From: a virus
Lineage: Duplodnaviria > Caudoviricetes
Reading direction: 5' to 3' (one strand)
Length of the DNA stretch: 64,000 nucleotides
IMG/VR virus record: IMGVR_UViG_3300044557_000281
Location: 1-64,000 of that record
Shown here: positions 1,869 to 64,000 of the stretch, piece by piece
How the letters are laid out: each line of letters begins with the position of its first letter
Position numbering within the stretch: the stretch's first letter is position 1
The notes under the pieces: model-generated
The model's database searches: none
Told to the model about the DNA's origin: nothing
What the model saw: the letters and a program-made list of their open reading frames with translations, nothing else
Made by a program: the position numbers and the translations under genes

Positions 1869-4800
1869 TTAGTTGTATTGTGTGTATATGTCTGGTAAAG
1901 TAGGTGACATTGTTTCGTTTAACCATAGGTTGTTAAATTCATAACCAGCCCCATAGTTAACATCTACTAATCGTTCGTACCCTAGCATACTATAAACACA
2001 TGCTTGACCATACAACTAGAAGCATAATCTTGTTAAGAAGCTTCTAGCTAGACTATATCATCAATAATCATATTAGTCAATATAATTATTGGTACACGCT
2101 TCCCACCTTAGAGTTTCACTAAAGTAGTACAGATTTCATCAGCATAGCTACTAAGCCTTAGCTAGTATATCTTAGTCGTTAGACCTTCAAAGCATTTTCA
2201 TGCTAAGCTTGGCACAGGATTAGCATGAAAATGCTTTCCCTGTTAGCTTGCTTATTAACCATCATTTCTTATGGCTACTTAACCGTTAAACAAACACCCT
2301 ATAAGTATAGGTTCATGTACTTTATCGACCACTAATTTGTCAATGGTCGTCTCCTCTGCGTTTAATTATTTGATAAAATTCACCAGTTTTTTGGTCTTCT
2401 TCATCACGAATAACAATATTTCCCCAGTGTTCAATAAAGCGTTTTAATTCTTCATCAACTTCCCACCAGAAACCAATTTCTCCACCTTTCATCTTAGCAA
2501 TGTATCGTTTGTTTTGCATAAGTTTATCAGCAGAAACAATACTATTTTGCTCTGACCATGAAGGAATTAAATTACCAGTAGATTTAGGGGTGCTGGGATA
2601 TTTGCAACCGAATACTTTTTGTTTCCCATAATAAGCAATCAGTTGCGCAAGCTTTTCTCCACTATCCCCAATATCAGCCACAATAATATCCGGACTGTAG
2701 GGGGCTAGTTCTGCAATAATACTTTGTAAGTCAACCCCAATTGCTTTAGGGTCTACTATACTTGATTTACCAACAGAAAATAATCGAATCAAGTCTACTT
2801 GTCCATTGGTTCTTACACCGTGAACAGCACACCAATGACGATTTCCCCAATCGATACCCACCGAGATAAATTTATAATCTCCTCGGCTCATACGTTGTGT
2901 TGGTAAATCTTGTTTTCTGTGTTCTAATACGTCCTCTTGGTGAACACTTAATTTCTTATCTTCGTAGGGGTATCCAAGTGTGTAATTCCAAAACGCTTGC
3001 TTGGATAATGACGCTAGTTCTTTGCGTTTTAGGTCGTCAGCGGTACGGGCATACCGTAGTTTTCACTATACTTTAACACTGATTTAACAGTCGGACTAGA
3101 CTATATCATAAACCTACTTTTTGGTGTAGGTTTCCTTGCTTTACTTTCTCTTACGAGATTTTCTTATCTGGTTTTCACTAGTACCATTTTACTAGTTATC
3201 CAGAAATTTAGTCGTTAGGCTTTTATAGTGCATTGCACTGATTTAGCACGGGATTAACTCTGTCCATATAGGATTTAGTCTCTCTTATCAGCTTATTGGT
3301 TATTCAGCTATGCCCGTTTAACAAGGTTTACTCTCTTATCATTGCTAATAAGGTGGGCTATTACTTAACCCACACCGCGTTCATTTGGCTTATCATGTAC
3401 CCTCTTGTACCTTGACCACCTTTAGTACGGTCAGGGAATTTAGGAACCCCATTGTTAACTACCGCTACTTTCGTAGTATTTAATACGGATTGGACTATAT
3501 CATATTCTTATATTTTGGCATAAGAATCTCTACGTTACGCTATTGCTGTTGGCATTTTTTTGTAAAATCTTCGACTACTTCTAACACTTTATTTTACATT
3601 TGTAGTTTGTATGATACTCTGATAGCAGAGTAATTCTACCGCCATTTGCTTTTACAGCTTCTTCTCTGTAGCTTTCTGGTGTTTGTTTTATACCTTTCAT
3701 AATGTGTTCTCCTTAACTGTGCCAACAGTTCTAATAGCTTTCTCTTAGTTCTCACTAACCCCATTTGGTTAGCTACCCAAGAATTTAGTCTCTAGGCTTT
3801 TATAGCGCTTTGCGCTAGTTTAGCACGGTAGGTAAACTCTATCCTTGCATATTAGGACTTAGTCTTTCTTACCAGTATATTCTTTGTATATGCATTATTT
3901 TACTATGCCCGTTTAGTAGAGTTTAAGGTGTACAGGTCTGTTTATACACCGTTGTACCATCTGTCTAGTGGCTCTCCACACTTTTGGCAAACGAATTGGA
4001 AGGAACCATCTACGACAGTCTTAGCGAGTACGTCAACCCCTTTAGGGTTAACACAATAAATATTGCCACGTTTCTCAATTGGTGCTTCTGGATTATAATC
4101 CTCATAACTCATTTCGTTATAGTGATTACATTTAGGGCATTTGTGCATATACACAAATTGGTCGGATTGCTCAAACACACGGTGTATGCCCATGTGAGGG
4201 GTACTTGGTGTCGACCAACGGTTTATAATTTTGAATGGTGAACTTGACATGGATTCGATAGCAGACATTTCAGCAAAAGCTGGAACCCTATCATATTCGT
4301 CCCGAAAATACCGTAGTTTTCACTATACTTTAACACTGATTTAACAGTCGGACTAGACTATATCATAAACCTACTTTTTGGTGTAGGTTTCCTTGCTTTA
4401 CTTTCTCTTACGAGATTTTCTTATCTGGTTTTCACTAGTACCATTTTACTAGTTATCCAGAAATTTAGTCGTTAGGCTTTTACAGTGCGTTGCACTGATT
4501 TAGCACGGGATTAACTCTGTCCATATAGGATTTAGTCTCTCTTATCAGCTTATTGGTTATTCAGCTATGCCCGTTTAACAAGGTTTTCTATAGAAATTAC
4601 TTCCTATAGCCACTATAACTCAAAATGGCTAAATAGTCTATATCAATCTAAGAAACCCTCACTTTCGTGATATTTAATAGGGACTAGACTATATCATACC
4701 CCTCCTATTCGGTGGAGGGGTCTCTCCGTTACTTCCTACAAAACTTTAGTTAATCTTATATTTTTGCTCTTTATTTAAAACAATTCCTTGTACTGCCATT

Positions 4801-7371
4801 TTTAGCTCGTTATTTAAAACATAATAAGGTATACGATACAAATCTGTAGACAGTGTTTGGAAAAACTTATTGGTTTGGTCATCCTTCTGTTTTACTTTAG
4901 TTAGATAATCCATACCACCCCAAAGCTCCGTAGGTTCATAGTGCTGTCTACCATCGTACTCAATGACAATATCAAGCTCTGGTAAATAGAAGTCTAATCT
5001 ACGGACACCTACGTTAGGTATGTCAAACGTTTTTTCTTGCTCGTACTTTACACCTAGTTCATCAAGCATATAGGCAATCATTTCTTCCCCACCGCTCTCC
5101 TTACAATGTTTACAACCGTAACCACGCATAAACGCATTGTATTGAACATCCAGTTTGTTCCCACACTTTTCATGAGTAATATTAACAAACATATGATGGT
5201 TTTTCATATACACTTTGTTTAAAGTAAAGTTAGGTCTATTTTCTCTCATATAGTCTAGAACATCTTCCTCAGTGTGTCGGTAGATATTTGAGCAGTACTG
5301 ACAACCGGATGTTCCTGTTTTTACAATCCGAGATAAATTTTGTAGGGACGTGTGTACAGTTTTTCCACAAGGGATATGGATAAAATCAGTAGAATACTTT
5401 ATTAACTCAGGGTACTCTACAATTTCAAATGTCTTATCAAGACCAAGTTCTTTAAATCGCTTATCAAACTTGTCTTTAACACTTGCTCTATGTCGAGCAC
5501 GTTTATCTTCTTCCATACACATTTGACATGGTATCTTTTGAGCGCCAATAGAGTGTGGTATCTTATTAAATCGGTACCCACAAGTTAAACATTCAAAGTC
5601 GGCATGAGTTCGAGCATTCACATATTCAGAAACTAATCTGACATGTTTACGCTCCATTGTTTTAATAAAAGATTCTGGTATTTTTTTCATAGTAATAGTT
5701 TGTGTAGGTTTTCTTATCTAGTTCTCACTAATCCCATTTGATTAGCTACCTAGAAATTTAGTCGTTACACTTTCCTCCTTAATTTGATAAATTAACTATA
5801 ACATAAATATTATTTAGTGTCAATACCTATGTAGTCAATTGTTTTAAAGAGGTTTAGCACGGGATTAACACTATCCTAAAACTAGGACTTAGTCTCTCTT
5901 ATCAGCTTATTGGTTATTCAGCTATGCCCGTTTAGAAGAGTTTTTCGACACTAATCACTTAGTGAAGGGGCATTGTAAGTCTACCCTCTACTGCGCCCGG
6001 TTTAGAACTAGAACGAAAATATAAATAACTATCACGTATTTTCTTTGCTTTCAATGAATCTAGTTCTGGGTCGGCTATTGTCTTGTAGTACCCTTTTTCT
6101 AATAACGGATTTAGCCGTGTTTGTACGAACTTCAACATCTGCTCGTTGGTAGGAAATGTATAAAGTGCTTTAACTGCACTGTGACTGTACGTGTCTACAA
6201 AGTGTAATAACTTTCCTACACCAATTTCACTTAACCCGAGCTGACGCGACTTAATTACGGCTAAATTCTTGTGTGTGTCATTTAATACTTGTACTTGCCC
6301 ATTGAGTGTACCCTCGGTTTCCCGATATTTATTAGGGGACTAGACTATATCATCAACCTATCTTTTGGTTTAGGTTGCTCTACGTTACTTTCTCTTACGA
6401 GATTTTCTTATCTAGTTCTCACTAATCCCATTTGATTAGTTACCTAGAAATTTAGTCGTTAGAGTTTCAAATAAGAACAGTTAGTTATATTTATATGTTT
6501 AATAGCAGAACTCCCAACCTTTATAACTTTGTTGCTTTCCTGACAGGCATCTCCTTATACCATTTCTATCTAGTTGAGTGTCTCTTGCACACTCGTTTTG
6601 ACTTAGGTATGTTTTCCTAACACCTGTTGGGGAAGTAGCAGTGAACTTAGTCATATGGCTAGGCTGATATTTATTATTGACTTCCTTAGATATCCATATG
6701 CAGGTTTCGGTGGAATACTTTTTAGCCCCTTTAATGTCTTTGTCTAGTTGAAGCTCTCCTGCGTAGAACCTACTCTCATCCCAACCGTCAATATCACTAA
6801 TGTCTTCTAAGGAATAGTCGAAGCAGTGCCACCTAGCGTCTATGGTAACATCTTTGTAAGCATTAGCTCGAATATGCTTGGCATCATAACACCGCTTTAG
6901 CATACCTTGCCAGACACTAAAAGCTCTGCTATCAGTTCTGTAATTTGTCTCTATAAAATAACCCTTATTATAATAGCTAATGTTAAACACCCCCTTATTA
7001 GCTATTATATCATTTAACTATGGTTTTGTTAAGTACTGCTCTTATTTGTTTACTACGGTAGGTTAACTCTGTCCTTGCATATTAGGATTTAGTCTTTCTT
7101 ACCAGTATATTCTTTGTATATGCATTATTTTACTATGCCCGTTTAGTAGAGTTTATAGACCACAGCATTTTTATGGTCGGTGACTTTGCCGCTTAGTTTG
7201 GTCACGGTCGGAAATAACAAAGGTAATCGGGTGATTACGTATGGTGTGATTTCTCAACAAGTACGTGGAAGTTTGGGTCATATCTAGCAAGTAGCTAAGC
7301 TGTTCAGTTGAAATTCTTTCGGTACCGAACATTTGCCTAGACATACCAGCTAAGTGATTTCCATCTACCAT
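1869..7371 (-). CDS. terL: Terminase large subunit, 7 exons: 7371-7173, 6299-5983, 4647-4625, 4302-3944, 3449-3368, 3045-2343, 2012-1869
   Basis: Exons sum to 1827 nt (608 aa + stop). Join restores RPWQ, KSRQLGLSE, Walker B IDIDYLAMDE, STP, GIDWG and GDDHYGQA, collinear with recalled phage K-type TerL. Confidence 0.93.
2013..2342 (-). ncRNA. Group I intron terL-I6 (330 nt, no ORF)
   Basis: P1 CGACCAU/GUGGUCG; terminal G at 2013 before TAT GGT CAA. Confidence 0.9.
3046..3367 (-). ncRNA. Group I intron terL-I5 (322 nt, no ORF)
   Basis: P1 GUGGGU/GCCCAC; terminal G at 3046; core near-identical to I3. Confidence 0.9.
3450..3943 (-). ncRNA. Group I intron terL-I4 (494 nt, endonuclease remnant)
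   Basis: P1 GGUGUAU/GUACACC; P10 GGGUU; terminal G at 3450. Confidence 0.9.
3581..3700 (-). pseudogene. 39-codon remnant of an intron endonuclease
   Basis: RBS AGGAG + MKGIKQTPESYREEAVKANGGRITLLSEYHTNYKCKIKC*; resembles the N-terminus of the I2 ORF. Confidence 0.55.
4303..4624 (-). ncRNA. Group I intron terL-I3 (322 nt, no ORF)
   Basis: P1 UAGCCAU/GUGGCUA; terminal G; core near-identical to I5. Confidence 0.9.
4648..5982 (-). ncRNA. Group I intron terL-I2 (carries endonuclease ORF)
   Basis: P1 GGGU/GCCC; P7 core; terminal G at 4648 before ATT GAT ATA GAC. Confidence 0.88.
4746..5690 (-). CDS. Intron-encoded Vsr/DUF559-like homing endonuclease with Zn-ribbon repeats
   Basis: CxxC repeats; C-terminal RLDFYLP..IVIEYDGRQHY. 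Confidence 0.78.
   Translation of the reverse strand: MKKIPESFIKTMERKHVRLVSEYVNARTHADFECLTCGYRFNKIPHSIGAQKIPCQMCMEEDKRARHRASVKDKFDKRFKELGLDKTFEIVEYPELIKYSTDFIHIPCGKTVHTSLQNLSRIVKTGTSGCQYCSNIYRHTEEDVLDYMRENRPNFTLNKVYMKNHHMFVNITHEKCGNKLDVQYNAFMRGYGCKHCKESGGEEMIAYMLDELGVKYEQEKTFDIPNVGVRRLDFYLPELDIVIEYDGRQHYEPTELWGGMDYLTKVKQKDDQTNKFFQTLSTDLYRIPYYVLNNELKMAVQGIVLNKEQKYKIN
6300..7172 (-). ncRNA. Group I intron terL-I1 (carries HNH ORF)
   Basis: P1 ACCAU/GUGGU with U-G pair at the splice site; P7 GACUA/UAGUC; terminal G; P10 with GGCA. Confidence 0.9.
6499..6990 (-). CDS. Intron-encoded HNH-type homing endonuclease with C-terminal NUMOD1-like domain
   Basis: WQGMLKRCY, LDKD..YS.ETC.WI...NN, SQNECAR...CLSGK; lies inside terL-I1. 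Confidence 0.8.
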   Translation of the reverse strand: MFNISYYNKGYFIETNYRTDSRAFSVWQGMLKRCYDAKHIRANAYKDVTIDARWHCFDYSLEDISDIDGWDESRFYAGELQLDKDIKGAKKYSTETCIWISKEVNNKYQPSHMTKFTATSPTGVRKTYLSQNECARDTQLDRNGIRRCLSGKQQSYKGWEFCY

Positions 7372-16700: not shown

Positions 16701-18030
16701 AGTAGAAATGCTTAAAGAATAACGGACGTATTAAATTATGATAAACTTGTGGAAATTACTGGCTCATATAAAGCCAGCATGGGTTGCAGAAGTTTTTTAA
16801 ACAAATGGGTCAATGAACATGGAGAAGAAGTTCATGCTGGTCGTATGAATTTGGGTGTTATTTCATTAAACACACCAAGAATTGGGATTGAATCAGAAGG
16901 AAATGTTGAAACTTTCTGGGAACTTTTCAATGAACGATTAGACATTGTTCATGAGGGGCTACAATTCCGAATTAAACGTTGTAAGGAAGCGCAACCTAAG
17001 AATGCACCAATGCTTTATAAACAAGGTGCATTCGGTCATTACCTTACAGATGAGGATACAGTAGACCAACTGTTCGACAATGAACGAGCTACCGTTTCTA
17101 TCGGCTATATTGGCTTATATGAAACAATGACAGCTTTGTTCGGTAATCCTAATTGGGAAACCAATAAAGATATTTATGCTTTTTCTATCGAAGTAGTGAG
17201 ACGTATTGCTGAAAAAGCTGAAAAATGGTCTAAAGAAGAAGAAATCCATTATTCATTGTATGCCACACCAAGTGAATCAATGACTGACCGGTTCTGTAGA
17301 TTAGATACCGCTAAGTTCGGTATTATCAAAGACATTACAGACAAAGGTTTTTATGTGAACTCATTCCATTTAGACACACGAAAAGATTGGTCTCCAATGG
17401 ATAAGATTGATTTTGAATCACCTTACCCTAAATACTCTAATGGTGGGTTTATTCACTATGTAGAAGCAGTTATTCCTAAGCACAATCTGAAAGCTATGGA
17501 ACAACTTTGGGACTACTCGTACGACAAACTAGGATATTTTGGTGTTAATACGCCAATAGATAAATGTTTGAAATGTGGTTTCGAGGGAGACTTTCACGCT
17601 ACCGAGGACGGCTACGAATGTCCAGAGTGTGGGAATAATGACCCAGAAACCTGTGATGTTGTAAAACGACTTTGTGGGTTAACTTAAAGGCTCACATTAA
17701 ACTGTATAAATTGACGGGGACTACCTTAGAGCTTTTACTACTAACTTACTGTGGTGACACAGGCAAGGGCTAGCATAATTAACTAGGTATAGTAAAAAAG
17801 TAAAAGATTGGTAAATCCGCAACGAAACTTCACTACCGTCACATGTTAGTGAAGGACGCTCAACGACTATAATTACGGATGAGGTTAGTCAAACCTCATA
17901 AGGTATAGTCTACTCCCCTAATAAATATCGGGAAACCGAGGGTACTAAGGATTTAGGACAACCACAATTACGCCCCGAAGTTAAGGGAAGACGTAAAGAA
18001 ATAATGAGTCGGGTTAAACACCAACAATAA
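13735..18030 (+). CDS. nrdD: Anaerobic ribonucleotide reductase, 6 exons: 13735-14427, 14716-14881, 15151-15182, 15522-15752, 16725-17679, 17951-18030
   Basis: Exons sum to 2157 nt (718 aa + stop); ATP cone, HFHD, NCC, QFGGCS, EYEVNT..NGQTPF, YPDV, MGCRS, CxxC..CxxC, RLCGYLG. Confidence 0.9.
14428..14715 (+). ncRNA. Group I intron nrdD-N1 (288 nt)
   Basis: P1 UGGU/GCCG; P10 GGGUG/CACUU; terminal G. Confidence 0.85.
14882..15150 (+). ncRNA. Group I intron nrdD-N2 (269 nt)
   Basis: P1 CUUGAGU/GCCCAAG; P7 GACUA/UAGUC; terminal G. Confidence 0.88.
15183..15521 (+). ncRNA. Group I intron nrdD-N3 (~339 nt; 3' end atypical)
   Basis: P1 UAACGGU/GCUGUUA; P7 core; P10 CAAAC/GUUUG places the 3' junction after A15521. 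Confidence 0.75.
15753..16724 (+). ncRNA. Group I intron nrdD-N4 (carries HNH ORF)
   Basis: P1 CCCU/GGGG; P10 GACGU/ACGUU; terminal G at 16724. Confidence 0.88.
15959..16594 (+). CDS. Intron-encoded HNH homing endonuclease
   Basis: SIDRIDGNLGYEKDNVRFI...N; C-terminal NUMOD-like segment. Confidence 0.8.
   Translation: MEKDELLQLAIDGYLKEVETITYIECPVCHAKLTYKWKSSLRNIKSIHGANCSKYYQNQVTKELGEQACKKFSSTYRHAKERCTNKNSKDYYCYKGKWGFTDYVDYHFCCYSSFRDAWLRKIENISIDRIDGNLGYEKDNVRFISMGDNLRNKDRIKPVMALNIETNECLTANSLASLVNSNSTTFKSLSAMHHHLKNGGLYKKKWKVVYQ
17680..17950 (+). ncRNA. Group I intron nrdD-N5 (271 nt), splits the Tyr codon of RLCGYLG
   Basis: P1 UGUGGGU/GCUCACA; terminal G at 17950. Confidence 0.9.
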
Positions 18031-54720: not shown

Positions 54721-55054
54721 TATAATTTGCCCTCCTTTGGTCTTATTATAACTCTTGTTTTGATTAAAGTAAAGCCATAATCTTATTATTTTCATTTGTT
54801 TCGGTGGACTGTAAGAGATGTCCGTATACTCGTTGTACCATAGAGGTGTCTGTATGTCCTAAACGCTTAGCTACCACCTGTAATGAAATTCCTTTGGGTG
54901 AACTACTCACCACTTAGCTAAACCTAACGGTTTCTTACGCTTGAAGTGGGAGCTTCTTGGGAATAGAGCGTACTTGCAAGCGTATTTCTTTGCTCACAGC
55001 GGTGTCTCTTATTTACCAAGCTATCCCCGTAGTTCCTACGGTTCTTGATTGTAC

Positions 55055-56206
55055 CTAAGCTAATGATTGTATTCTTAGACCTTCGGTCAAGATATTGATA
55101 CTAGCGTTGATGTCTCGGTCGTGTTGAGTATGACAAATAGGGCAAGTCCATTCTCGAATATCAAGAGATTTCTTACCATCTTTGTGTCCACAATTCGAAC
55201 AGATTTGGCTAGATGGAAACCACTTATCTACTTTGATGATTTTCCGACCGTACCAGTCAGCTTTGTATTGTAATTTAGTCACAAAACTAGACCAAGAAAC
55301 ATCCGAAATACTTTTTGCTAGTTTATGATTACGCAACATACCTTTTGTGTTTAAGTCTTCAATACAGATGATATCGTGATTTTTGATAATTTCTGTACTC
55401 AACTTATTCAGAAAATCAGTACGTTGATTCATTACTTTTTCATGCAATCGTGCTACTTTTCGTTTTTGCTTTTGGTAGTTTTTAGCTTCGAATAGATTGA
55501 TACCTTTCTTTTTAGCTAAAAGACCGCGTCTTGACAACTTACATTGTTCACGTTTTAGTTTCTTTTCCATTTTGGATGTGAATTTATTATTATCAATTTT
55601 TTGTCCGTCAGAAAGAATTGCAAAGTCAGTAATACCTAAGTCAATACCAATCGCAGACTTCATCTTAGGTAATTCGTTAACTTCTTCTTTGCATAACAGA
55701 GAAACATAGTATTTACCGCTAGAATGACGTGAGATTGTAGCGGACTTGATAATCCCTTTAGGCTGTCTATGAAGTTTAATTTTGATTAATGATTTTAATT
55801 TAGGAACTTTGATAAGTCTATTATCAATCAAAGAAATTGTTCCATTTTGATTATTCGTTGTATAACTCTGAACAGGATTTTTCTTACTCTTGAAACGAGG
55901 AAATCCAATGGATTTATCCCGAAAGAAATTCTTGTATGCTTTATCTAAATTAAGTTGTGCATTGGCTAAAGCAAGGCTATCAACTTCCTTCAAAAACGGA
56001 AATTCTTTCTTGTATTTAGCAGGTGTCGGAAAAGTCATTGTTTTAGAAGAATCATTTTTTACTTCTTCATACGCCTTTATTCGGTCATTAAGCATTAGAT
56101 TGTAGACCTTACGGATGCAACCAAAAGACTTAGCAAAGAAAATTTCTTGTTCTTCTGTTGGATATAATCTAAACTTATATGCTTTTAGTCGTTCCATAAG
56201 GCTCAC
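55055..56206 (-). CDS. tnpB: RNA-guided nuclease TnpB
   Basis: GIDLG; CIEDL; CSNC/CPIC; DRDINAS. Confidence 0.93.
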   Translation of the reverse strand: MSLMERLKAYKFRLYPTEEQEIFFAKSFGCIRKVYNLMLNDRIKAYEEVKNDSSKTMTFPTPAKYKKEFPFLKEVDSLALANAQLNLDKAYKNFFRDKSIGFPRFKSKKNPVQSYTTNNQNGTISLIDNRLIKVPKLKSLIKIKLHRQPKGIIKSATISRHSSGKYYVSLLCKEEVNELPKMKSAIGIDLGITDFAILSDGQKIDNNKFTSKMEKKLKREQCKLSRRGLLAKKKGINLFEAKNYQKQKRKVARLHEKVMNQRTDFLNKLSTEIIKNHDIICIEDLNTKGMLRNHKLAKSISDVSWSSFVTKLQYKADWYGRKIIKVDKWFPSSQICSNCGHKDGKKSLDIREWTCPICHTQHDRDINASINILTEGLRIQSLA

Positions 56207-56213
56207 CTACTTT

Positions 56214-56618
56214 CTATTTATGATTATTCCCTTGATTCTGAATATATTTCTTTATAACGTCAATCGGTGCACCACCAGTAGTCAAAAGACAGAAGCTTTT
56301 AGACCAGAACATTTCCTTCCAGAGAAATTGTTTTACTCTTGGAAAGTCACGTTTTATCAAACGAGAACTAGCACTTTTATAGGCATTGATGAATTTTGTT
56401 AATTCCGTTTTTGGTTGAGCTTTGAACATGATGTGAATATGGTCTTTATCATGATTCCACTCAACTAAAGTAATGTGATACGATTTTGAAATTCTTTCAA
56501 AAGTATCTTTAGCATAATCAGATATTTCATCATCAATCACTTGTCTACGATACTTCGTTACTAAAACAAGGTGGTAATAAAGAAGGAATACTGAATGATT
56601 ATTTGTGTCTAATTCCAT
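56214..56618 (-). CDS. tnpA: IS200/IS605 Y1 transposase
   Basis: YHLVLVTKYR; DHIH; FWSKSF; YIQNQ. Confidence 0.93.
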   Translation of the reverse strand: MELDTNNHSVFLLYYHLVLVTKYRRQVIDDEISDYAKDTFERISKSYHITLVEWNHDKDHIHIMFKAQPKTELTKFINAYKSASSRLIKRDFPRVKQFLWKEMFWSKSFCLLTTGGAPIDVIKKYIQNQGNNHK

Positions 56619-56962
56619 GTTATATCAACTCATTTCTTATATAGACTGATTATAACATAAGATAAAATAAAAAGTCAATATTGCCTTAACTGTCGGTTTT
56701 CGAGTTACCAACGGTAACCCTTATACTGAACGGCATTCATCACCCACCTATAGAGGATGGGCGACTTCTGCCTAATTCTGTTAAAAGGTAGGAAGCATGT
56801 GTATGGCGTAATTTATGGAACGCTGACACTCCACACGACTAAAGTCGTGGGGTTCTTAGGTAGTACACCCTAACAGGTGCAAATTTACTAAGCTATCCCC
56901 GAAAGTCCTTCGGTTTTAATATTTACGCTTGTCCAAGATAATATAACGGGGTATAGAACCCT

Positions 56963-57100
56963 ATATGTGGGTGCTACTACGATAAAAGATTCGTTTATAT
57001 ATAAGAAAGGGTTTGTAGGGTCTATCTCCACACTAGGTAGAGATAGCTTTTCTACAAACCTCTTAACATTGCCTGTTAAACTTAAGTAGGCAACTAACAT
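56963..57100 (-). pseudogene. nrdI: nrdI 5' fragment
   Basis: AYLSLTGNVKRFVEKL...FIVVAPTY, then fuses to the IS right-end sequence. Confidence 0.75.
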
Positions 57101-57102
57101 AT

Positions 57103-57333
57103 TTAAACTGCCAACTTAGCAATCAAGTCAGGTCTAAACCCTGAGAATGGCTCTCCTACAGGAGGGACTACGAAAGGTGCCTCCATAGCACCTTGGTTGA
57201 CCGCCTCTTCTCTATACTCGTCATTAAGGTCAATATGTCTCTCTTCATACTCTAACCCTAATTTTTCTAACTCTTTCTTAGTAAAGGTACATTGTCCGCA
57301 CCCTGCCTTAGAATATACAATAACTTTACTCAT
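57103..57333 (-). CDS. nrdH: NrdH-like glutaredoxin
   Basis: VYSKAGCGQC; GFRPD. Confidence 0.85.
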   Translation of the reverse strand: MSKVIVYSKAGCGQCTFTKKELEKLGLEYEERHIDLNDEYREEAVNQGAMEAPFVVPPVGEPFSGFRPDLIAKLAV

Positions 57334-57349
57334 TCAAAACCACCCTTAT

Positions 57350-58069
57350 TTAATGTATTACTTTATATAATCTTTCTGTCCTACCTCTATTTGAATTGTT
57401 TATGGATGATACCCCTATAGTCACCTCTTTGCACCAAAACTCCTCAAAAATGTCCTCAGGCATATCATACTCACTAATAAGCACTGTGTTATTCTCTGCC
57501 ATTTGTACACACCACTCATAAAATTCATTATGAGAAAATGTGTCCCGATAACCTAAGGTACTTTTATAGGGAGGGTCACAATAAATAACGGCACCCGATA
57601 CTGTTTTAGGGTCATAGTCCTTATACGAGCCTAACCCAAATTTTATACCCTTTAAGTTAGGAGCTTGGTTAATAATATTACGTATACCTTCACTAGACAT
57701 GTCACGTTTACCCTTTCTGTCTCTAGCAAACCCGCCAAAGTATTTAGCCCCAAATGTAGCACAAAAACCTACTAAGCCAACGTACCAATCAGGGTAGCTA
57801 TTCTTATTATCCCTAACATTGATATACTCGTCCTCAGTTATCGTACTAGGTAAGTTACTAATATTGTCCTCGTCTTGGACATAAACAAGTAGTGCAATAA
57901 GTTTCTCATGAACATCCGTCCCTATCTTAACTGGACTCTTAATCTTATCAATCATATTAGCCCCTCCAACGAAGGGCTCTATGTACATTGTAGTATCCTC
58001 CGTTATATATGATTGAATTATTGGTGCTATTTGTTTACTCAGCCTGTTTTTACTTCCTACGTATTTCAT
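57350..58069 (-). CDS. Dam-family N6-adenine DNA methyltransferase
   Basis: YVGSKNRL; EPFVGGA; YCDPPY; ISEY. Confidence 0.88.
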   Translation of the reverse strand: MKYVGSKNRLSKQIAPIIQSYITEDTTMYIEPFVGGANMIDKIKSPVKIGTDVHEKLIALLVYVQDEDNISNLPSTITEDEYINVRDNKNSYPDWYVGLVGFCATFGAKYFGGFARDRKGKRDMSSEGIRNIINQAPNLKGIKFGLGSYKDYDPKTVSGAVIYCDPPYKSTLGYRDTFSHNEFYEWCVQMAENNTVLISEYDMPEDIFEEFWCKEVTIGVSSINNSNRGRTERLYKVIH

Positions 58070-58079
58070 GTTAAACCTC

Positions 58080-59045
58080 CTAGATAAAGTCGTCTGAAAA
58101 TACTTTGTCCACTAACTCTGTTAAGTAGTTTAAAGTTATTTCACCGTCATTTTCTTCTAACCACTCATTATAAGCGGAAAGGAACCACAGCATGTAGGTT
58201 GTGTCCACTCCGATTAATTGCTCCCTTAAAACGTCAGGGTTTTTCAAATCTAACTCTTGTAGCTGAAATACCATTTTAAGAATCTGACCTGCGTTAACAG
58301 AGAACCCTCTTTGAATAAACTTACGCATACGGAATAGAGAACATAGTGGAAACTTAGAACCTGTGTATACTAGCTCATGAGTCATCATAGACACAAGGGC
58401 TTCCTTAGGTAAACCTAATTCTTTTTCTTTAGGGTCATACCAACAAGTACAATGAACGAAATCAAAGTTCTCATGTATTTGTTCAGGAGAACCAACAAAC
58501 CTCAATATAAGCTGTACTTTACCTGTTAAACTAATTGCGTTGTCTGTAAAATACACTGGTTTGTGTCTAGTTTCCTCAGTGTCCTCCACATTAGTATCTT
58601 CATCAGTTGTAGGTTTCAAGTCCTCATTTTTAAGTAACTCAGTATCTTGTGCCACACCTGACGATTTTATAAATACTTTTATCGGGTCAGTTGCTCCTTT
58701 AAATTTATGTGCGTCTGCCACATCAATATCTACACTCTCGCCTTCTCCTCCATATCCCTCTACGGAGGACGTTGTAATATCAGCATACTGTAGTTTAACT
58801 GATTCTTTGTTTTTCTTTTTATTAAACATTTTAGCATAGTAATCTGCGACTATAATAGCTGAGTACGTGTCCCTAAAGTATATATCTAGGTCGTTCAAAT
58901 CACCTACCATAAGTAAGCTAGCAACAGCACCTCCTGTTACGAATGTGCCGTCTTTAGCTACTTTTCTTACTTCTTCGTCTGTTATAGATTCTAGCCATGC
59001 TTTGTGTTTTCTACCTATAATGCTTTTTACAGTTTTAGTTTTCAT
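58080..59045 (-). CDS. Putative nucleotidyltransferase-fold phage protein
   Basis: GGAVASLL..DLDIYF; FDFVHC; RMRKFIQRGF. Confidence 0.55.
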   Translation of the reverse strand: MKTKTVKSIIGRKHKAWLESITDEEVRKVAKDGTFVTGGAVASLLMVGDLNDLDIYFRDTYSAIIVADYYAKMFNKKKNKESVKLQYADITTSSVEGYGGEGESVDIDVADAHKFKGATDPIKVFIKSSGVAQDTELLKNEDLKPTTDEDTNVEDTEETRHKPVYFTDNAISLTGKVQLILRFVGSPEQIHENFDFVHCTCWYDPKEKELGLPKEALVSMMTHELVYTGSKFPLCSLFRMRKFIQRGFSVNAGQILKMVFQLQELDLKNPDVLREQLIGVDTTYMLWFLSAYNEWLEENDGEITLNYLTELVDKVFSDDFI

Positions 59046-59107
59046 AATTATCTCCTTTTATCATATTTTAATTAATAATACCATAAAAGAGATAATTTGT
59101 CAACTAA

Positions 59108-59187
59108 TTACTTTATATGTTTAACTCTAGCGTCAATCTCTTTTTTACGACCATACGCATTAGGTCTAGCTTGTGGTTGTCCTAAAT
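59108..59187 (-). pseudogene. nrdD: Second nrdD terminal exon (80 nt)
   Basis: (Y)LGQPQARPNAYGRKKEIDARVKHIK*; same phase and length as exon 17951-18030. Confidence 0.85.
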
Positions 59188-60325
59188 CCTTTATACCCTC
59201 GGTTTCCCGATATTTATTAGGGGCATAGACTATACAATCACCTAAACGGTGGCTATATTATAGTCGTTGAACGTTATCTATGGTTAACTTTTTATATTTT
59301 TCATATTTACGGTCTAGATACACAGTAGCATTCCTGTACAGTATAGTTAACGCCATTCTAGCGTTGTTACCTCCTAGAGAGATATAGAAAATACCTTTAG
59401 CCCTGTATAACTGACTTTTAGACTTTGGTGCAATTATCGGCTTAACCACTGACAAGAGTTGTTCAGTACCTAGCATAGAAAACCTAACTCCTGATTTGCT
59501 GTTGTATACTGAACCATCTCCATCGAAGTAACCTCTAATAAAGTGGTTAACTAGATTATCGTCTAGTTTAGGAAACTTTAGTGTTTTACTTTTGTTGGGT
59601 GTTAGCCCCTTGTCTAGTAAGTCATTATACATTTTTCTACTAGTAATGTTTAGTACACAATACTTGTAGTCTTCACCGCTGTATGAGCTACTATTGCTAG
59701 TATACACATGAATAGGGATGTTACTGCTTAAACTTGAGTTTAATTTGTGTAAGTGGTCTATATCCTTTACAGATAACTTCACGCCTATAACTTTCCCGTT
59801 AGTAACGTACCCATCAGCCATGAGAAAACCTAACCAGTAAGCTTTATGCTCTGTGTTTATAACCTCAAAGTAGTCGTCATCCCAAGTATAAACCTTACCA
59901 TTAGACTCTACCCCTCTAATAGAAATGTTATTCTCTAGTAGCACTCTCTTTATTACAGATGTGCTTACTGAAAACTTACTGGCTATTGCTTGTTGACTAC
60001 TTCCTGCATTGTAACTTGTTAGTATAATTTCTATATCTTTATCCGTAAATATTTTCTTTTTTACCACATGTGTACCTCCTATAAGTTAGTTATACTTATA
60101 ATATAGCACAATGGAGTTTAACTGAGCCATAAATCTTCGATGCGGATTTCCCATTTATCCACCCTTAGCACCTTTGTGACAAGGCTTTTATTTCAGCTTA
60201 GGTAATCTAACTAATTTTTTCTGCTTTCGCAACGTTCACGCTCACCGTTTCCAGTCACGTTGTAATTTAGTTAGCTTTACGTATTTCCAGCAATTCAGTT
60301 TCTTCATTGGGCAATATGAGTTTTT
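59188..60325 (-). ncRNA. Group I intron lacking its 5' exon (cognate to the nrdD-N5 site)
   Basis: P7 GACUA/UAGUC; P9 shared with N5; terminal G; IGS GCCCA at 60312-60308. Confidence 0.75.
59258..60067 (-). CDS. Intron-encoded two-motif LAGLIDADG endonuclease with N-terminal HTH
   Basis: AYWLGFLMADGYV; HFIRGYFDGDGSV; LDRKYEKY. Confidence 0.85.
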   Translation of the reverse strand: MVKKKIFTDKDIEIILTSYNAGSSQQAIASKFSVSTSVIKRVLLENNISIRGVESNGKVYTWDDDYFEVINTEHKAYWLGFLMADGYVTNGKVIGVKLSVKDIDHLHKLNSSLSSNIPIHVYTSNSSSYSGEDYKYCVLNITSRKMYNDLLDKGLTPNKSKTLKFPKLDDNLVNHFIRGYFDGDGSVYNSKSGVRFSMLGTEQLLSVVKPIIAPKSKSQLYRAKGIFYISLGGNNARMALTILYRNATVYLDRKYEKYKKLTIDNVQRL

Positions 60326-61300
60326 GTATTGCCTCTAAATGCAAGTTTCCCTACATTCTTACAGTACGTCTACGGGCTATCATCCACACGGTTTTAACCG
60401 TGTGGGTTTTCTCGCCCGCAAATTCTATAAGTGGTCTGGTACACCGCAAGCGGTTAAGACTCTTCTTAAAGTTTCGTTCACTGTAGAATTAACTGGGTTA
60501 CGGTCTGTGGCTACAAAGTAAGGGGCATGTGGTTGAATTGTGTCATAGATGCTTCGCCACTGCTCAAATTTAGCTAAGAGAGTTAACCAATCTTGGTCAA
60601 TTACAATCGTTCGTACACTAGATAAGTTCTTGGTTGGGGCATAATCTTTGGTATATTTATAATCCCAAGTCTTATCAATTCGGATTGTATTATTGTTGAT
60701 TGAATCCTGATTTAGTCCTAGAATTTCAGATAAACGAGCACCAGTCTTTAGGGCTGTGTAAATAGGGAACATATAATACTGGATAGCGGTTTCTCTAGCC
60801 CTCGGTTTCCCTTGGGTATTAAAAGAAACTGGTTCCTTGGTTAAGAATGTGTTTAACCATGCTTCTGTATAAGAGACCACTCTAGTGTACTCATCTACCT
60901 CTAACTATTTCTTGGCATTTCGCTCATTAGACAGTTCTAAGATAGTCATTTGGTCGTCCTTACTGGTTAGAGTGATACGTTTATAAGGGCTTACTGGGAT
61001 ATAATTATCAATTACTGCGTCCGATAAGCATGATTTTATGTAGTTACTTTCTGTTTTTACTGTTCGTTTACGGTGGGTTAGCCCGTAGTCTTGCATATAC
61101 TGCTGAATATCTTTACGAGTAATTTTAGTGAGTTGTAGTTGCCCTAGATTAGATTTAGCTAATCGGTCTCCTGTAATCGTGTATTTTTCTAAGGTTGCTA
61201 ATCCTACATTAGGTTTCTTGTATAAGTTTACCCACTCGTTATACCACTCTGTCATTTTCATGTTATTTATTCTCTCCTTCTTTGTTTTAAGTACAAGCGT

Positions 61301-61329
61301 AGTATAACAGTATTTATTAGTGTTGTCAA
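61301..61329 (-). promoter_or_regulatory. SigA promoter of the recombinase
   Basis: TTGACA-17-TATACT. Confidence 0.75.
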
Positions 61330-61413
61330 TACTAATGTTAGAGTAAAATAAAATGATTAGTTGTGTGAACTAATCATTCTATTCTTCATGCTATTTAAAC
61401 AACAAATTTCGTT

Positions 61414-61878
61414 GTTGTAAAACGAGAGGAACTAACGGGAACTGATGTACAGCAACGTGTGGAAACGACTATTTACGTAAGAAATAGAATCATTGCTAAA
61501 TCAATTGTTAAAAACACTTATATTAATCCGGCAAACGGAAATGAAGATTACCAAGAGGGGAATGCTGTATTCACTACAGCACCCATCGCAATTGCCGTCA
61601 AAGAAGTTTCGATAGCAAAATATGAAAAAACTACATATGGAAACATTGCTATGAGTTTTTATAAAGCTATTCCACCGTCTGGTTTTGTGAATACTCTTGT
61701 TGTTACCACAGATGGAGAAACCAAGGAATCTATGTCGTTTACAATTGATGAGAGTATTAATTATATCCGCTTTAGTCCTGATGCAAATAACGGCGACTAT
61801 AATTTTAAATTCAAACTAGTATCTGGAACTGAAATAGGCGGAAGAACACTAGCTCCAGAGGACATCTTAGCTAGCTAG
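61414..61878 (+). CDS. Silent alternative C-terminal cassette (CBM-like) for gene 61867-62472
   Basis: Open from the repeat: VVKREELTGTDVQQRVETTIYVRNR...KLVSG...APEDILAS; no convincing own start. Confidence 0.75.
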   Translation, partial: VVKREELTGTDVQQRVETTIYVRNRIIAKSIVKNTYINPANGNEDYQEGNAVFTTAPIAIAVKEVSIAKYEKTTYGNIAMSFYKAIPPSGFVNTLVVTTDGETKESMSFTIDESINYIRFSPDANNGDYNFKFKLVSGTEIGGRTLAPEDILAS

Positions 61879-62355
61879 TATACTTTCAGCTGGAATGGTC
61901 CAAATGTATGAATCTTCCGAACTACCTTTTCTTAAAGAAAGCTTGCGTGCCTGACAGATAACTGGTAGATTGCCATCATTTTGGGTAATCATGACCAGAC
62001 CGAGGGTCGTAGAATTTTCGGTTGTCAGTACTGTCGCGGTTGTGATACCCTTGCTTCCATTTTTCACTTCTTGATTGCTTCCCCAATCTGCAACTGTGCC
62101 ATCAGAAAGATGGGACTGTAATTGTACACTTAAAGGCAATGTGTTAGAAGGCGCGGTATTATCAATTTCTATGCTTGCCGTATAATTTTCGTTAGATTGA
62201 ACATTGAGTAGTTCAATCTCCCCATTGTTCCAACCAGTAAATTTATATTCAACCCATTTTGAGGTACTAAGTAAACTAGTTAAATTGCGACTATACACCA
62301 CTACCCCCTCACGCTCAACGGCACCACTAGTAGCTACAACATCTCGTTTTACAAC
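61414..62355. other. Putative invertible segment bounded by GTTGTAAAACGAGA inverted repeats (61414-61427; 62342-62355)
   Basis: Both repeats read GTT GTA AAA CGA GA (VVKR) in frame with two alternative convergent C-terminal domains. Confidence 0.85.
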
Positions 62356-62472
62356 GTCTAACGGTTTCACTGTTAACGCGCCTGTATCGTCCTTCACACA
62401 TTGGAACCACACATAGTCAGAGGCGGTGTCTGTTGGTTGCACTTTATATAAATGTCCTTCGATTAATTTCAT
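61867..62472 (-). CDS. Putative virion surface protein with CBM-like C-terminal domain (expressed phase)
   Basis: VVKRD..VYSRNL..KLSLRKG..WTIPAESILAS. Confidence 0.65.
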   Translation of the reverse strand: MKLIEGHLYKVQPTDTASDYVWFQCVKDDTGALTVKPLDVVKRDVVATSGAVEREGVVVYSRNLTSLLSTSKWVEYKFTGWNNGEIELLNVQSNENYTASIEIDNTAPSNTLPLSVQLQSHLSDGTVADWGSNQEVKNGSKGITTATVLTTENSTTLGLVMITQNDGNLPVICQARKLSLRKGSSEDSYIWTIPAESILAS

Positions 62473-63398
62473 GCGGTTACTCCTTTTACCATAGTAAGAA
62501 AGTCAGTTTGAGATAACGAGTGAACAACACTATCCGTATCACTTGCCACACCGTCCACTGTTATATTAAGACTTTGTTTACTAATGATTTCTGTATTTTC
62601 ATAAATGTCTTTTGGTGCATAAGTAAAAGTAATTAAGTCTGTAGTAGCCCCTTTAATCACTTTGTGTTTGTTGCTATATTTTCCACTATCTGCGTCCATA
62701 GTCACAATAAGACTAGCTGTTCTATCGGGGGCAGTGAAGCTGAAGTTCCCTCCGGCTACTGTGGTTGTATTTTTATCTTGTTTTAACATGGTGCCACCGT
62801 CACCATACCATGTGAAGCTCACATTGCCCGTCCCAGCCGGTAGAATGCAACTATAGACCATCCCACTACTGGCTTTAATAGAACCGGTTACAAAGGAAGC
62901 TGTGGCGTCTACGATAGCGCCTGTAGCGTCCACACTCTTTAACGGTGTCACACCACCGGTCACAATTAAGTTTTTACTGTACACGGTTTTACCGTCACTG
63001 GATTGGATTAAATCTACTGGTGTCACTTGTCCGTACACACTTACATAATACACAAACTTACTAACGGTATCTGCCGGTTGTACAGCATACAATAAACCGT
63101 CTGTAGCAAAGAAGCTATCGGCATTGTTTATGTGGGTCATAAAGTCGGTCTGACTAATGGAAATAGTCTCATACTTCCCATTGCTTACTACACCGTCTAC
63201 TGTAATGAAATAATCAGTCAGTATAGGTAAAGCAGTAAATCCCGGTACGTATTGTTTTAAGCCGTCACTCGTTCGTTTAACATAGTAACTATTAGGTGGT
63301 ACAACTTGCCTACTCAATAAACCAGAAATTACTAGTGAAGTTTTATCCCCACTAGTAATTAGTTTATTGGCAGAATCGTATAATTCGTATTTAGCCAA
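62469..63398 (-). CDS. Putative virion/tail accessory protein with CBM-like domain
   Basis: VYSKNL..KVIKG..FTYAPKD; YAVQPADT module shared with 61867-62472. Confidence 0.6.
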   Translation of the reverse strand: MAKYELYDSANKLITSGDKTSLVISGLLSRQVVPPNSYYVKRTSDGLKQYVPGFTALPILTDYFITVDGVVSNGKYETISISQTDFMTHINNADSFFATDGLLYAVQPADTVSKFVYYVSVYGQVTPVDLIQSSDGKTVYSKNLIVTGGVTPLKSVDATGAIVDATASFVTGSIKASSGMVYSCILPAGTGNVSFTWYGDGGTMLKQDKNTTTVAGGNFSFTAPDRTASLIVTMDADSGKYSNKHKVIKGATTDLITFTYAPKDIYENTEIISKQSLNITVDGVASDTDSVVHSLSQTDFLTMVKGVTA

Positions 63399-63416
63399 TT
63401 GTTATTGTCCTTTCTA

Positions 63417-63884
63417 TCATTCTATTGGAAATATATCGTTATAAGCCGGTGTCCATACTATAGTGGCTGAATCATCACCAGTAGTTGGGATATACAGCTT
63501 ATAACCTGATTGTGGGTCTAATTCTGGTAAGGTAATCTTGCCGTTAGTGTCAGTCATAATTGTTCCGATTAACTCTTGTCGTTGCTCATACTGCCCATAT
63601 GAATCCTCATCAGTCGGTGCCACTACTTCATAAGAGTAATAACGGACTAAATCATAATTCGTATCAGCCAGTAGAACATCTGGCGTACCTGATTTAGGTA
63701 GCCAGTTTCTACGATAGTTGTTAACCTCCCCTGTCTCTAATACAAGATTTATCTTTTTAATGGGTTTATCGTCCACAAGCAATAAATCGTCTACGTCATA
63801 AATGTAAGGGAGTGAGTGCAAACCTTGCGCTTTATATATGTTATAGTTGGTTAGATTGCATGGCTGAATTGTGTATTTTGTCAT
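63417..63884 (-). CDS. Putative virion/tail accessory protein
   Basis: YRRNWL..WTPAYND. Confidence 0.55.
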   Translation of the reverse strand: MTKYTIQPCNLTNYNIYKAQGLHSLPYIYDVDDLLLVDDKPIKKINLVLETGEVNNYRRNWLPKSGTPDVLLADTNYDLVRYYSYEVVAPTDEDSYGQYEQRQELIGTIMTDTNGKITLPELDPQSGYKLYIPTTGDDSATIVWTPAYNDIFPIE

Positions 63885-64000
63885 ACTTCTAAACCGTTCC
63901 CTTCACTTGCTACTGTCGTATCAACCATTGCTAAAAAGTCTGCTTGTGAAACTGTCTCTACGTCATAGTCCCCTGTTTCTACTACACCATCTCTAGTAAT

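Follow-up and report, generated by a model that had tools for sequence, protein, structure and literature searches.

Inversion systems that exchange the C-terminal part of a phage protein are known from phages Mu and P1, whose G and C segments are turned by Gin and Cin (also Min of p15B). They use serine invertases with 34-bp gix or cix sites, an enhancer and Fis, their cassettes carry the chaperone gene U or U', and their hosts are Gram-negative. In the phase-variable hsdS loci of bacteria (pneumococcal ivr/CreX, Mycoplasma hsd), a tyrosine recombinase lies beside silent half-genes that have no start codon, and inversion takes place at short in-frame repeats. Here we analyzed a locus at positions 61414-62472 of a 64,000-nt window, the whole stretch of DNA under study, which is the first 64 kb of a 90,155-nt IMG/VR record (IMGVR_UViG_3300044557_000281, estimated 60% complete). 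An initial annotation, made from the letters of the DNA, had described this locus as a shufflon-like inversion switch that swaps a carbohydrate-binding-like domain of a putative virion protein. The most likely reading, to which we give an even chance, is that the locus is a two-state invertible switch of a C-terminal domain, with the layout of the Mu G segment and a candidate tyrosine recombinase of the Rin type introduced below, and that this switch is now locked.

The window shares with the Mu G segment and the P1 C segment the succession of a constant part, a site inside the gene, an expressed cassette, a convergent silent cassette, a second site and a recombinase on the silent side. It differs from them in having a candidate tyrosine recombinase and a 14-bp repeat instead of a serine invertase and 34-bp gix or cix sites. 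The hsdS loci resemble it in combining a recombinase with start-less cassettes, but their target is a bacterial restriction-specificity subunit and not a phage protein. A phage-encoded tyrosine invertase that acts on a receptor-binding protein has been described as the Rin shufflon of the Bifidobacterium prophages Bb423phi1 and Bl157phi1 (Mavrich et al. 2018, PMC6109161). Like the window, Rin has a constant N-terminal part followed by alternative C-terminal cassettes, short crossover repeats (11 bp in Rin), and an armless XerD-like tyrosine recombinase located next to the cassettes, at the end opposite the constant part (PMC6109161). Several cassettes, a recognised tail receptor-binding protein, temperate siphophages and rearranged variants between genomes belong to Rin only (PMC6109161), whereas the window has two tail-to-tail cassettes with overlapping stops in a lytic-type Herelleviridae-like genome, outside the tail module, with a recombinase that is a pseudogene and with no variant seen; the two recombinases are likened here by their armless architecture, not by sequence relatedness. 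In BV01-like Phocaeicola phages, an invertible region flanked by a recombinase extends into the distal end of a gene for a carbohydrate-binding tail fibre (PMC13596623, preprint). That system resembles the locus in its recombinase, its affected gene end and its short motif (a 10-bp core in BV01), and it differs in its three cassettes, its six isoforms, its activity shown by reads and its temperate Bacteroidota phage (PMC13596623). The initial annotation had considered a tyrosine-type switch to be new for Herelleviridae-like phages. A literature search found no such switch reported in Herelleviridae, but a phage tyrosine-invertase shufflon as such has been on record since the 2018 description of Rin (PMC6109161), and what is new here is the minimal two-cassette form with overlapping stops in a large lytic-type phage and outside the tail module, a cassette pair mobile between phages and a recombinase disabled three times.

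The gene in question encodes 201 amino acids (61867-62472, minus strand) and is the last of a minus-strand operon of four, after a Big_2 immunoglobulin-like (Ig) domain protein, a 155-aa protein and a 309-aa protein. Its ATG overlaps the stop codon of the 309-aa gene and is preceded by a strong AAGGAG ribosome-binding site. The gene consists of a constant N-terminus and of one of two cassettes, A and B; homologs of the N-terminus are found at residues 100-144 of the 309-aa paralog and at the N-terminal ends of P0002 and P0005. The features are as follows:

62356-62472, minus strand: constant N-terminal 39 codons of the expressed 201-aa gene, with AAGGAG 8 nt upstream of the ATG
62342-62355, no strand: right arm of the 14-bp inverted repeat and proposed crossover site; VVKR, codons 40-43 of the 201-aa gene
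61867-62341, minus strand: cassette A, the expressed C-terminal domain, a predicted beta-sandwich; phrog_37836, with Atlas structural neighbours that bear CBM_4_9
61867-61878, no strand: 12-nt overlap of the stop regions, TTAGCTAGCTAG, read as ILAS-stop on both strands; same overlap in the related phages L002 and L008
61428-61878, plus strand: cassette B, the silent alternative domain, in a frame open from 61399
61414-61427, no strand: left arm of the 14-bp inverted repeat, inside an imperfect dyad at 61407-61427
61347-61383, minus strand: terminator-like 18-bp stem-loop followed by a U-rich run, -17 kcal/mol, z -4.8
62469-63398, minus strand: 309-aa paralog directly upstream, with the same linker motif and phrog_37836 and with no VVKR insert

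The two arms form an exact inverted repeat, with GTTGTAAAACGAGA at 61414-61427 on the plus strand and its exact reverse complement at 62342-62355. Each arm encodes V-V-K-R in the frame of its own cassette, and around the plus-strand arm this frame runs open from 61399 up to the stop codon at 61876-61878. The left site is an imperfect dyad of the recombinase type (61407-61427, TTTCGTT-GTTGTAA-AACGAGA), and the right site has lost one arm of this dyad. The sequences that surround the 14-bp arms are unrelated between the two sides. The right arm sits on an 11-codon insert, VVKRDVVATSG, which is absent from cassette A of L002, from the expressed cassette of L008 and from the 309-aa paralog. Inversion of 61428-62341 would place the plus-strand cassette in frame behind the 39-codon N-terminus. 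In this part the initial annotation was accurate: the repeat with its coordinates and frames, the dyad with its one-armed counterpart and the possibility of fusing a constant 39-aa N-terminus to either domain were all found in the sequence as claimed.

Cassettes A and B converge and end tail to tail in ILAS-stop. Their overall similarity is weak (BLASTP E 0.37; about 25% identity), and their alignment agrees at both ends, with VYSRN in A and IYVRN in B at the start and ..PAESILAS and ..APEDILAS at the end; ORFs (open reading frames) and alignment bear out the convergent arrangement and the shared landmarks that the initial annotation had listed. B is an intact homolog of A in a 160-codon open frame in DNA of 36.7% GC, and by our own estimate a stop-free run of this kind would arise by chance with P of about 1e-5. 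Its frame contains no ATG, GTG or TTG before 61459, and upstream of it there is no Shine-Dalgarno sequence and no promoter-like site on the plus strand. Because of the missing early start codon, Shine-Dalgarno sequence and plus-strand promoter, cassette B reads as a coding sequence that is not expressible where it is located. The terminator-like hairpin stands just past cassette B on the operon strand, outside the segment that would be inverted.

Only two other phage types carrying this cassette family were found. One is represented by a Logan contig, L002, in which A is expressed, a near-identical B' is reversed, and the N-terminus has diverged. The other is represented by L008, L078 and L079, which come from three samples, are 100% identical to one another and have the same type of N-terminus as the window; here a cassette C is expressed and a cassette D is reversed. 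The pairs A/B, A/B' and C/D comprise four different cassettes, and the 12-nt overlapping stops occur in all of them. In both types a repeat, GCCGTTGATCGTGAGGG (AVDREGV), lies in frame at the N-terminal boundary of the cassettes, as 21 nt at 95% in L002 and as 19/21 in L008. An 11-12-residue leader, (M)ELNVFS..HV, precedes the site in the silent cassettes of the relatives and is similar in length to the insert of the window, which would be expected if A had once occupied the silent position. The window and L002 have only 856 nt in common (window 61471-62323; 97.7% identity) between unrelated flanks, and cassette B is about 98% identical to the silent cassette of L002. The genes upstream in L002 differ from those of the window and include a tail-protein-like gene. 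The shared block begins at one arm of the L002 repeat and ends just short of the other. Because it is bounded near L002's own repeats, the cassette pair enclosed by inverted repeats behaves as a discrete, exchangeable module.

Beyond these, 50,697 phage records searched by megablast and tblastn with the locus and with each of the two cassettes yielded nothing, scans of IMG/VR and JGI metagenome contigs that used a protein or an alignment yielded no relatives, and exact DNA patterns (the stop junction and the starts of cassettes A and B) had 0 matches in IMG/VR. The 17-mer GCCGTTGATCGTGAGGG gave 64 single pattern matches, none of which was related by tblastn, and these were treated as chance. 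A low-depth phage of the C/D type is also present in the source sample, which is bioreactor sludge: a 487-nt contig of run X1 (depth 4) aligns at window 61846-61889, matches the window only at the ILAS stop junction and then continues like cassette D of L008.

A tyrosine recombinase gene adjoins the silent cassette. Its start codon lies at 61261, 153 bp from the left arm, in agreement with the distance of about 150 bp in the initial annotation, and the gene is broken into three pieces:

61301-61329, minus strand: sigma-70-like promoter in front of the recombinase gene, TTGACA-17-TATACT, 11/12 matches, with a TG extension
60427-61261, minus strand: recombinase piece 1, SAM-like N-domain and catalytic domain to just before box II (H-x-x-R)
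56823-60426, minus strand: 3.6-kb insertion with IStron-like ends, a group-I-intron-like 5' part and phage genes
56781-56822, minus strand: recombinase piece 2, box II, SFHKLRHTHASYLLT, found by motif scan
54898-56780, minus strand: IS200/IS605-family insertion, with a Y1 transposase at 56214-56618 and TnpB at 55055-56206
54764-54897, minus strand: recombinase piece 3, KGISLQVVAKRLGHTDTSMVQRVYGHLL...stop, which includes the catalytic tyrosine

Piece 1 contains an in-frame amber codon at 60905-60907, at which the contig of the source run (depth 94) showed no variant. The C-terminal piece, found by a six-frame Pfam search, lies 5.5 kb downstream of piece 1. Joined together (61261-60427, 56822-56781, 54897-54764), the three pieces amount to 336 codons and align end to end with gp43 of Listeria phage B025 (E 1e-47), seamlessly at both joints. 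The catalytic motifs (HKLR, LGH, VYGH) are complete only after this joining, and the gene in its present form cannot make that polypeptide. In B025 gp43, which is 314 aa long, the alignment with the joined protein begins at residue 10, and in the A006 integrase it begins at residue 61. Since the A006 alignment begins only there, the recombinase is, on this comparison, one that has no arm-binding N-terminal domain and begins with a SAM-like core-binding domain. Each single piece falls below the Pfam cut-off (PF00589), NCBIfam had no match for the pieces, and the best matches of the recombinase are integrase-family genes of temperate Firmicutes phages at 30-40% identity. The six-frame Pfam search found no second tyrosine recombinase in the 90-kb record. 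Since the recombinase carries an amber codon and two mobile-element insertions, its sequence lends good support to the view of the initial annotation that the switch is currently locked; only an enzyme encoded by the host or in the ~40% of the genome that is missing could still turn it.

Two other assignments around this gene were considered and rejected. A recombinase C-terminus at 59108-59257, just after the LAGLIDADG gene, was discarded, as Pfam is empty there and the true pieces lie at 56781-56822 and 54764-54897. An 'SCGV' upstream of piece 2, taken as a second recombinase copy, turned out to be part of the conserved 3' end of the IStron-like element. The gene for B025 gp43 (L076, 29040-29984), a 314-aa second recombinase and the nearest relative over the full length of the recombinase studied here, adjoins a DNA methyltransferase gene in the early region of that phage and not in its lysogeny module.

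As for what the cassettes encode, the domain family is phrog_37836, to which no function is assigned. Its distant relatives form the C-termini of minor tail proteins, one of which adjoins a phi29 gp9-like tail gene. The Atlas model of A (predicted local distance difference test, pLDDT, 0.65) has template-modelling (TM) scores of 0.52-0.63 to clusters carrying CBM_4_9, and the Atlas neighbours of B are accessory beta-sandwich domains of carbohydrate-active enzymes. Pfam had no match for the cassette domain and NCBIfam none for the cassette proteins. The initial annotation had recommended AlphaFold models of both fusions; that of the 201-aa protein (A), made from a 6-row alignment, was poor (pLDDT 50), and a Foldseek search of it against the PDB found nothing at E<=0.001, the weak beta-sandwich and lectin rows below this level not being used as evidence. 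In L002 and L008 the gene sits between tail-like genes and lysis genes, and in the window it comes after the Big_2 'structural protein with Ig domain', within the half of the genome devoted to replication. Of the two labels originally given, carbohydrate-binding-like and virion protein, both draw on remote homology and on structural neighbours of modest models, and neither a Pfam nor a PDB match backs them; we treat carbohydrate binding as a lead.

On the reading of a two-state switch, the locus would work as follows. The 201-aa gene combines the constant 39-codon N-terminus with cassette A, while B lies tail to tail with A and cannot be translated alone. Recombination between the in-frame 14-bp repeats would flip A and B together as the segment 61428-62341. 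B would then follow the same N-terminus and be served by the same promoter and ribosome-binding site, and the terminator, being outside the segment, would stay where it is. The candidate enzyme is the armless tyrosine recombinase that adjoins the silent cassette behind its own promoter. The flip would change what the protein binds, probably a glycan, because both cassettes are predicted beta-sandwich modules of the kind found at the tips of tail proteins of other phages. With the recombinase dead here, the phage would remain in the A state, short of an enzyme acting in trans. The anatomy, the reading frames, the silence of B, the broken recombinase, the conserved layout and the limits of the module are seen in the sequences themselves. 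That inversion has ever occurred, that this enzyme carried it out and that the protein binds a glycan is what we infer from the locus and its relatives.

Several observations weigh against this reading. The initial annotation had suggested searching for the opposite orientation, and none was found: the assembled contigs of four sequencing runs contain no such joint, a search of low power since assembly drops rare variants and uncovered parts say nothing; protein searches returned no protein that fuses the N-terminus to B or D; and the predicted inverted junction, TAGACGTTGTAAAACGAGAGGAAC, had 0 matches in metagenome contigs. Both phages that have the A/B pair carry A in the expressed position. 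The VVKR repeat of the window differs in sequence from the repeat of the relatives and lies 11 codons further out, and because repeat position and sequence differ between lineages, no conserved recombinase site can be defined. The phage with the C/D pair has a 103-aa gene, a holin and an amidase after its silent cassette, and no recombinase. No functional recombinase is present in the 90-kb record, given the amber codon and the two insertions, and the broken gene stands in a region dense with mobile elements, so that its adjacency to the cassettes could be coincidental. The silent cassettes of the relatives open with a conserved ATG leader, MELNVFS.., so that expression of their own is possible there. 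Finally, Markov simulations predict about 1.2 14-bp inverted repeats at 200-2000 bp spacing in a 90-kb genome. Because of this expectation the 14-bp repeat alone is not significant; what is improbable by chance is its position, in frame, at a homologous domain boundary and around two convergent homologous cassettes. Of the shufflon-like switch first proposed, then, the anatomy, the silent B, the conserved layout and the armless recombinase have stood, and an inverted allele, a conserved repeat and a recombinase beside the C/D pair have not been found.

Alternatively, there would be no programmed inversion at all, the reversed cassette being a spare module left by recombinational domain exchange between phages, the repeats being linker codons homogenised by homologous recombination or gene conversion, and the recombinase being stray mobile DNA. 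The block shared with L002 is sharply bounded at the conserved linker AV[DE]REGV-VYSRN, a typical mosaic joint of receptor-binding proteins, and the divergence of the boundary repeat between lineages and the C/D phage with no adjacent recombinase fit this explanation as well. So does the surrounding DNA: between the Ig protein and a 320-aa gene there are an intron-like element, a homing endonuclease, IStron ends and an IS605 element, in an interval that is short in Enterococcus Herelleviridae. However, a spare module leaves unexplained why the reversed cassette has stayed open over 160 codons with neither start nor ribosome-binding site in three phage types, why 14 nt are identical in the window on an insert outside the conserved linker, and why the locus resembles known invertible segments down to the terminator beyond the silent cassette; 14 bp is also short for homologous recombination. 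We consider this explanation unlikely on balance, though it retains an appreciable share of the probability.

The plus-strand frame could instead be an independent convergent gene, a paralog of the expressed one, whose product would be a lectin-like beta-sandwich protein that is free and not anchored, such as that of a moron or a factor that masks receptors. The conserved leader MELNVFS..HV on the reversed ORF of L002 and L008 points in this direction, and in Firmicutes phages, genes that lie in reverse orientation between the tail module and the lysis module are frequently morons. In the window, however, the frame has neither an early start codon nor a Shine-Dalgarno sequence nor a promoter-like site, and the ATG of the reversed cassette in L078 and L079, where the DNA upstream is known (the L002 contig ends 9 nt before that ATG), is likewise not preceded by a Shine-Dalgarno sequence. 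No signal peptide was seen by eye. A conserved leader in front of two unrelated cassettes, B and D, fits a flank that stays constant outside a segment that is exchanged, and we regard an independent gene as improbable. It is highly improbable that the inverted repeat is a chance match and that repeat, cassettes and recombinase are functionally unlinked, for although the simulated frequency would allow it, the repeat is in frame on both sides at a homologous domain boundary and the relatives have boundary repeats of their own.

The record that carries the locus is the replication half of a Herelleviridae-like phage, and the structural half is absent from it. Its DNA polymerase shares 49% identity with the polymerases of Enterococcus Brockvirinae phages, and EfV12-phi1 has the same succession of pol, SSB, UvsX, sigma factor, holin and Ig-domain protein; at this polymerase identity the phage would be at most a distant relative. 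Because the cassette gene closes the minus-strand run led by the Big_2 protein and the tail module is absent from the record, the switch locus lies outside the tail module. The interval from the Ig protein to the 320-aa gene is far longer than in EfV12-phi1 and full of mobile DNA.

Much of that DNA is the 3.6-kb insertion in the recombinase gene, which contains a LAGLIDADG gene, a 321-aa ORF, a Dam-type methylase gene, nrdH and a truncated nrdI. Both of its ends recur in an IStron-like element that lies within the primase gene, the 5' end at 85% across 245 nt and the 3' end at 94% across 109 nt, and both elements finish in ..GTGTCAG. Rfam recognised no family in 56000-64000, group I introns included, despite these ends being repeated in the genome. 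The element in the primase gene (genome 78863-81013, beyond the window) carries IS200 TnpA and TnpB, and the one in the recombinase gene (56823-60426) carries 3.6 kb of phage genes instead; both 3' ends read ..GTCGTGTGGAGTGTCAG. The nrdI sequence (window 56966-57103) covers the N-terminal 47 profile positions (..IVVAPTY) and is followed by the IStron-like 3' end, and its C-terminal part occurs nowhere in the 90-kb record. A 40-65-nt element 3' of the LAGLIDADG gene (59171-59235) recurs at 17903-17967, 6309-6360 and 4655-4693 with 82-94% identity, each time in the sense orientation relative to the genes around it; it could represent the 3' core of a group I intron or a regulatory motif.

Elsewhere in the record, a start-less 44-codon frame (..VSQADFLAMVDTTVASEGNGLEV; window 63881-64013) between the gene of the Big_2 protein and the 155-aa gene repeats the motif SQTDF[LM], which is present twice in the 309-aa protein. 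The RecA/UvsX-like gene (genome 65147-68913; L003 5147-7914) is split into ORFs of 607 and 236 aa, and the 607-aa ORF carries extra helicase/endonuclease-like sequence. Near the start of the window, a 14-20-nt sequence (138-157) has at least 8 inverted copies over 1228-1756, and a 33-nt tandem repeat occupies 1306-1387 within the region 1228-1770; the repeats at 138-157 and 1228-1770 may form an origin, packaging or regulatory array.

Taken at its widest, the locus would mean that a virulent, Herelleviridae-like family has, or recently had, a tyrosine-recombinase switch that alternates the tip with which a virion adhesin or decoration protein binds glycans, that this protein is encoded outside the tail module, that the pair of cassettes bounded by inverted repeats moves between unrelated phages, and that the recombinase was knocked out three separate times; we put this forward tentatively and hold it to be rather doubtful as a whole. 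The triple knockout may reflect selection to freeze one state. Since the evidence is confined to anatomy, and the switch no longer works in this genome, we consider the immediate importance of the locus to be moderate. The locus is a small, clean test bed, with two cassettes, 14-bp sites and one recombinase whose intact frame can be inferred. Programmed switching of host recognition is known for temperate phages, namely Mu, P1, the Rin bifidophages and BV01, and many of the phages used in therapy come from Herelleviridae. If the adhesin tips of such phages can be inverted, a host range predicted from one assembly could prove wrong, and further specificities would be held in reserve, unseen, in the silent cassettes.

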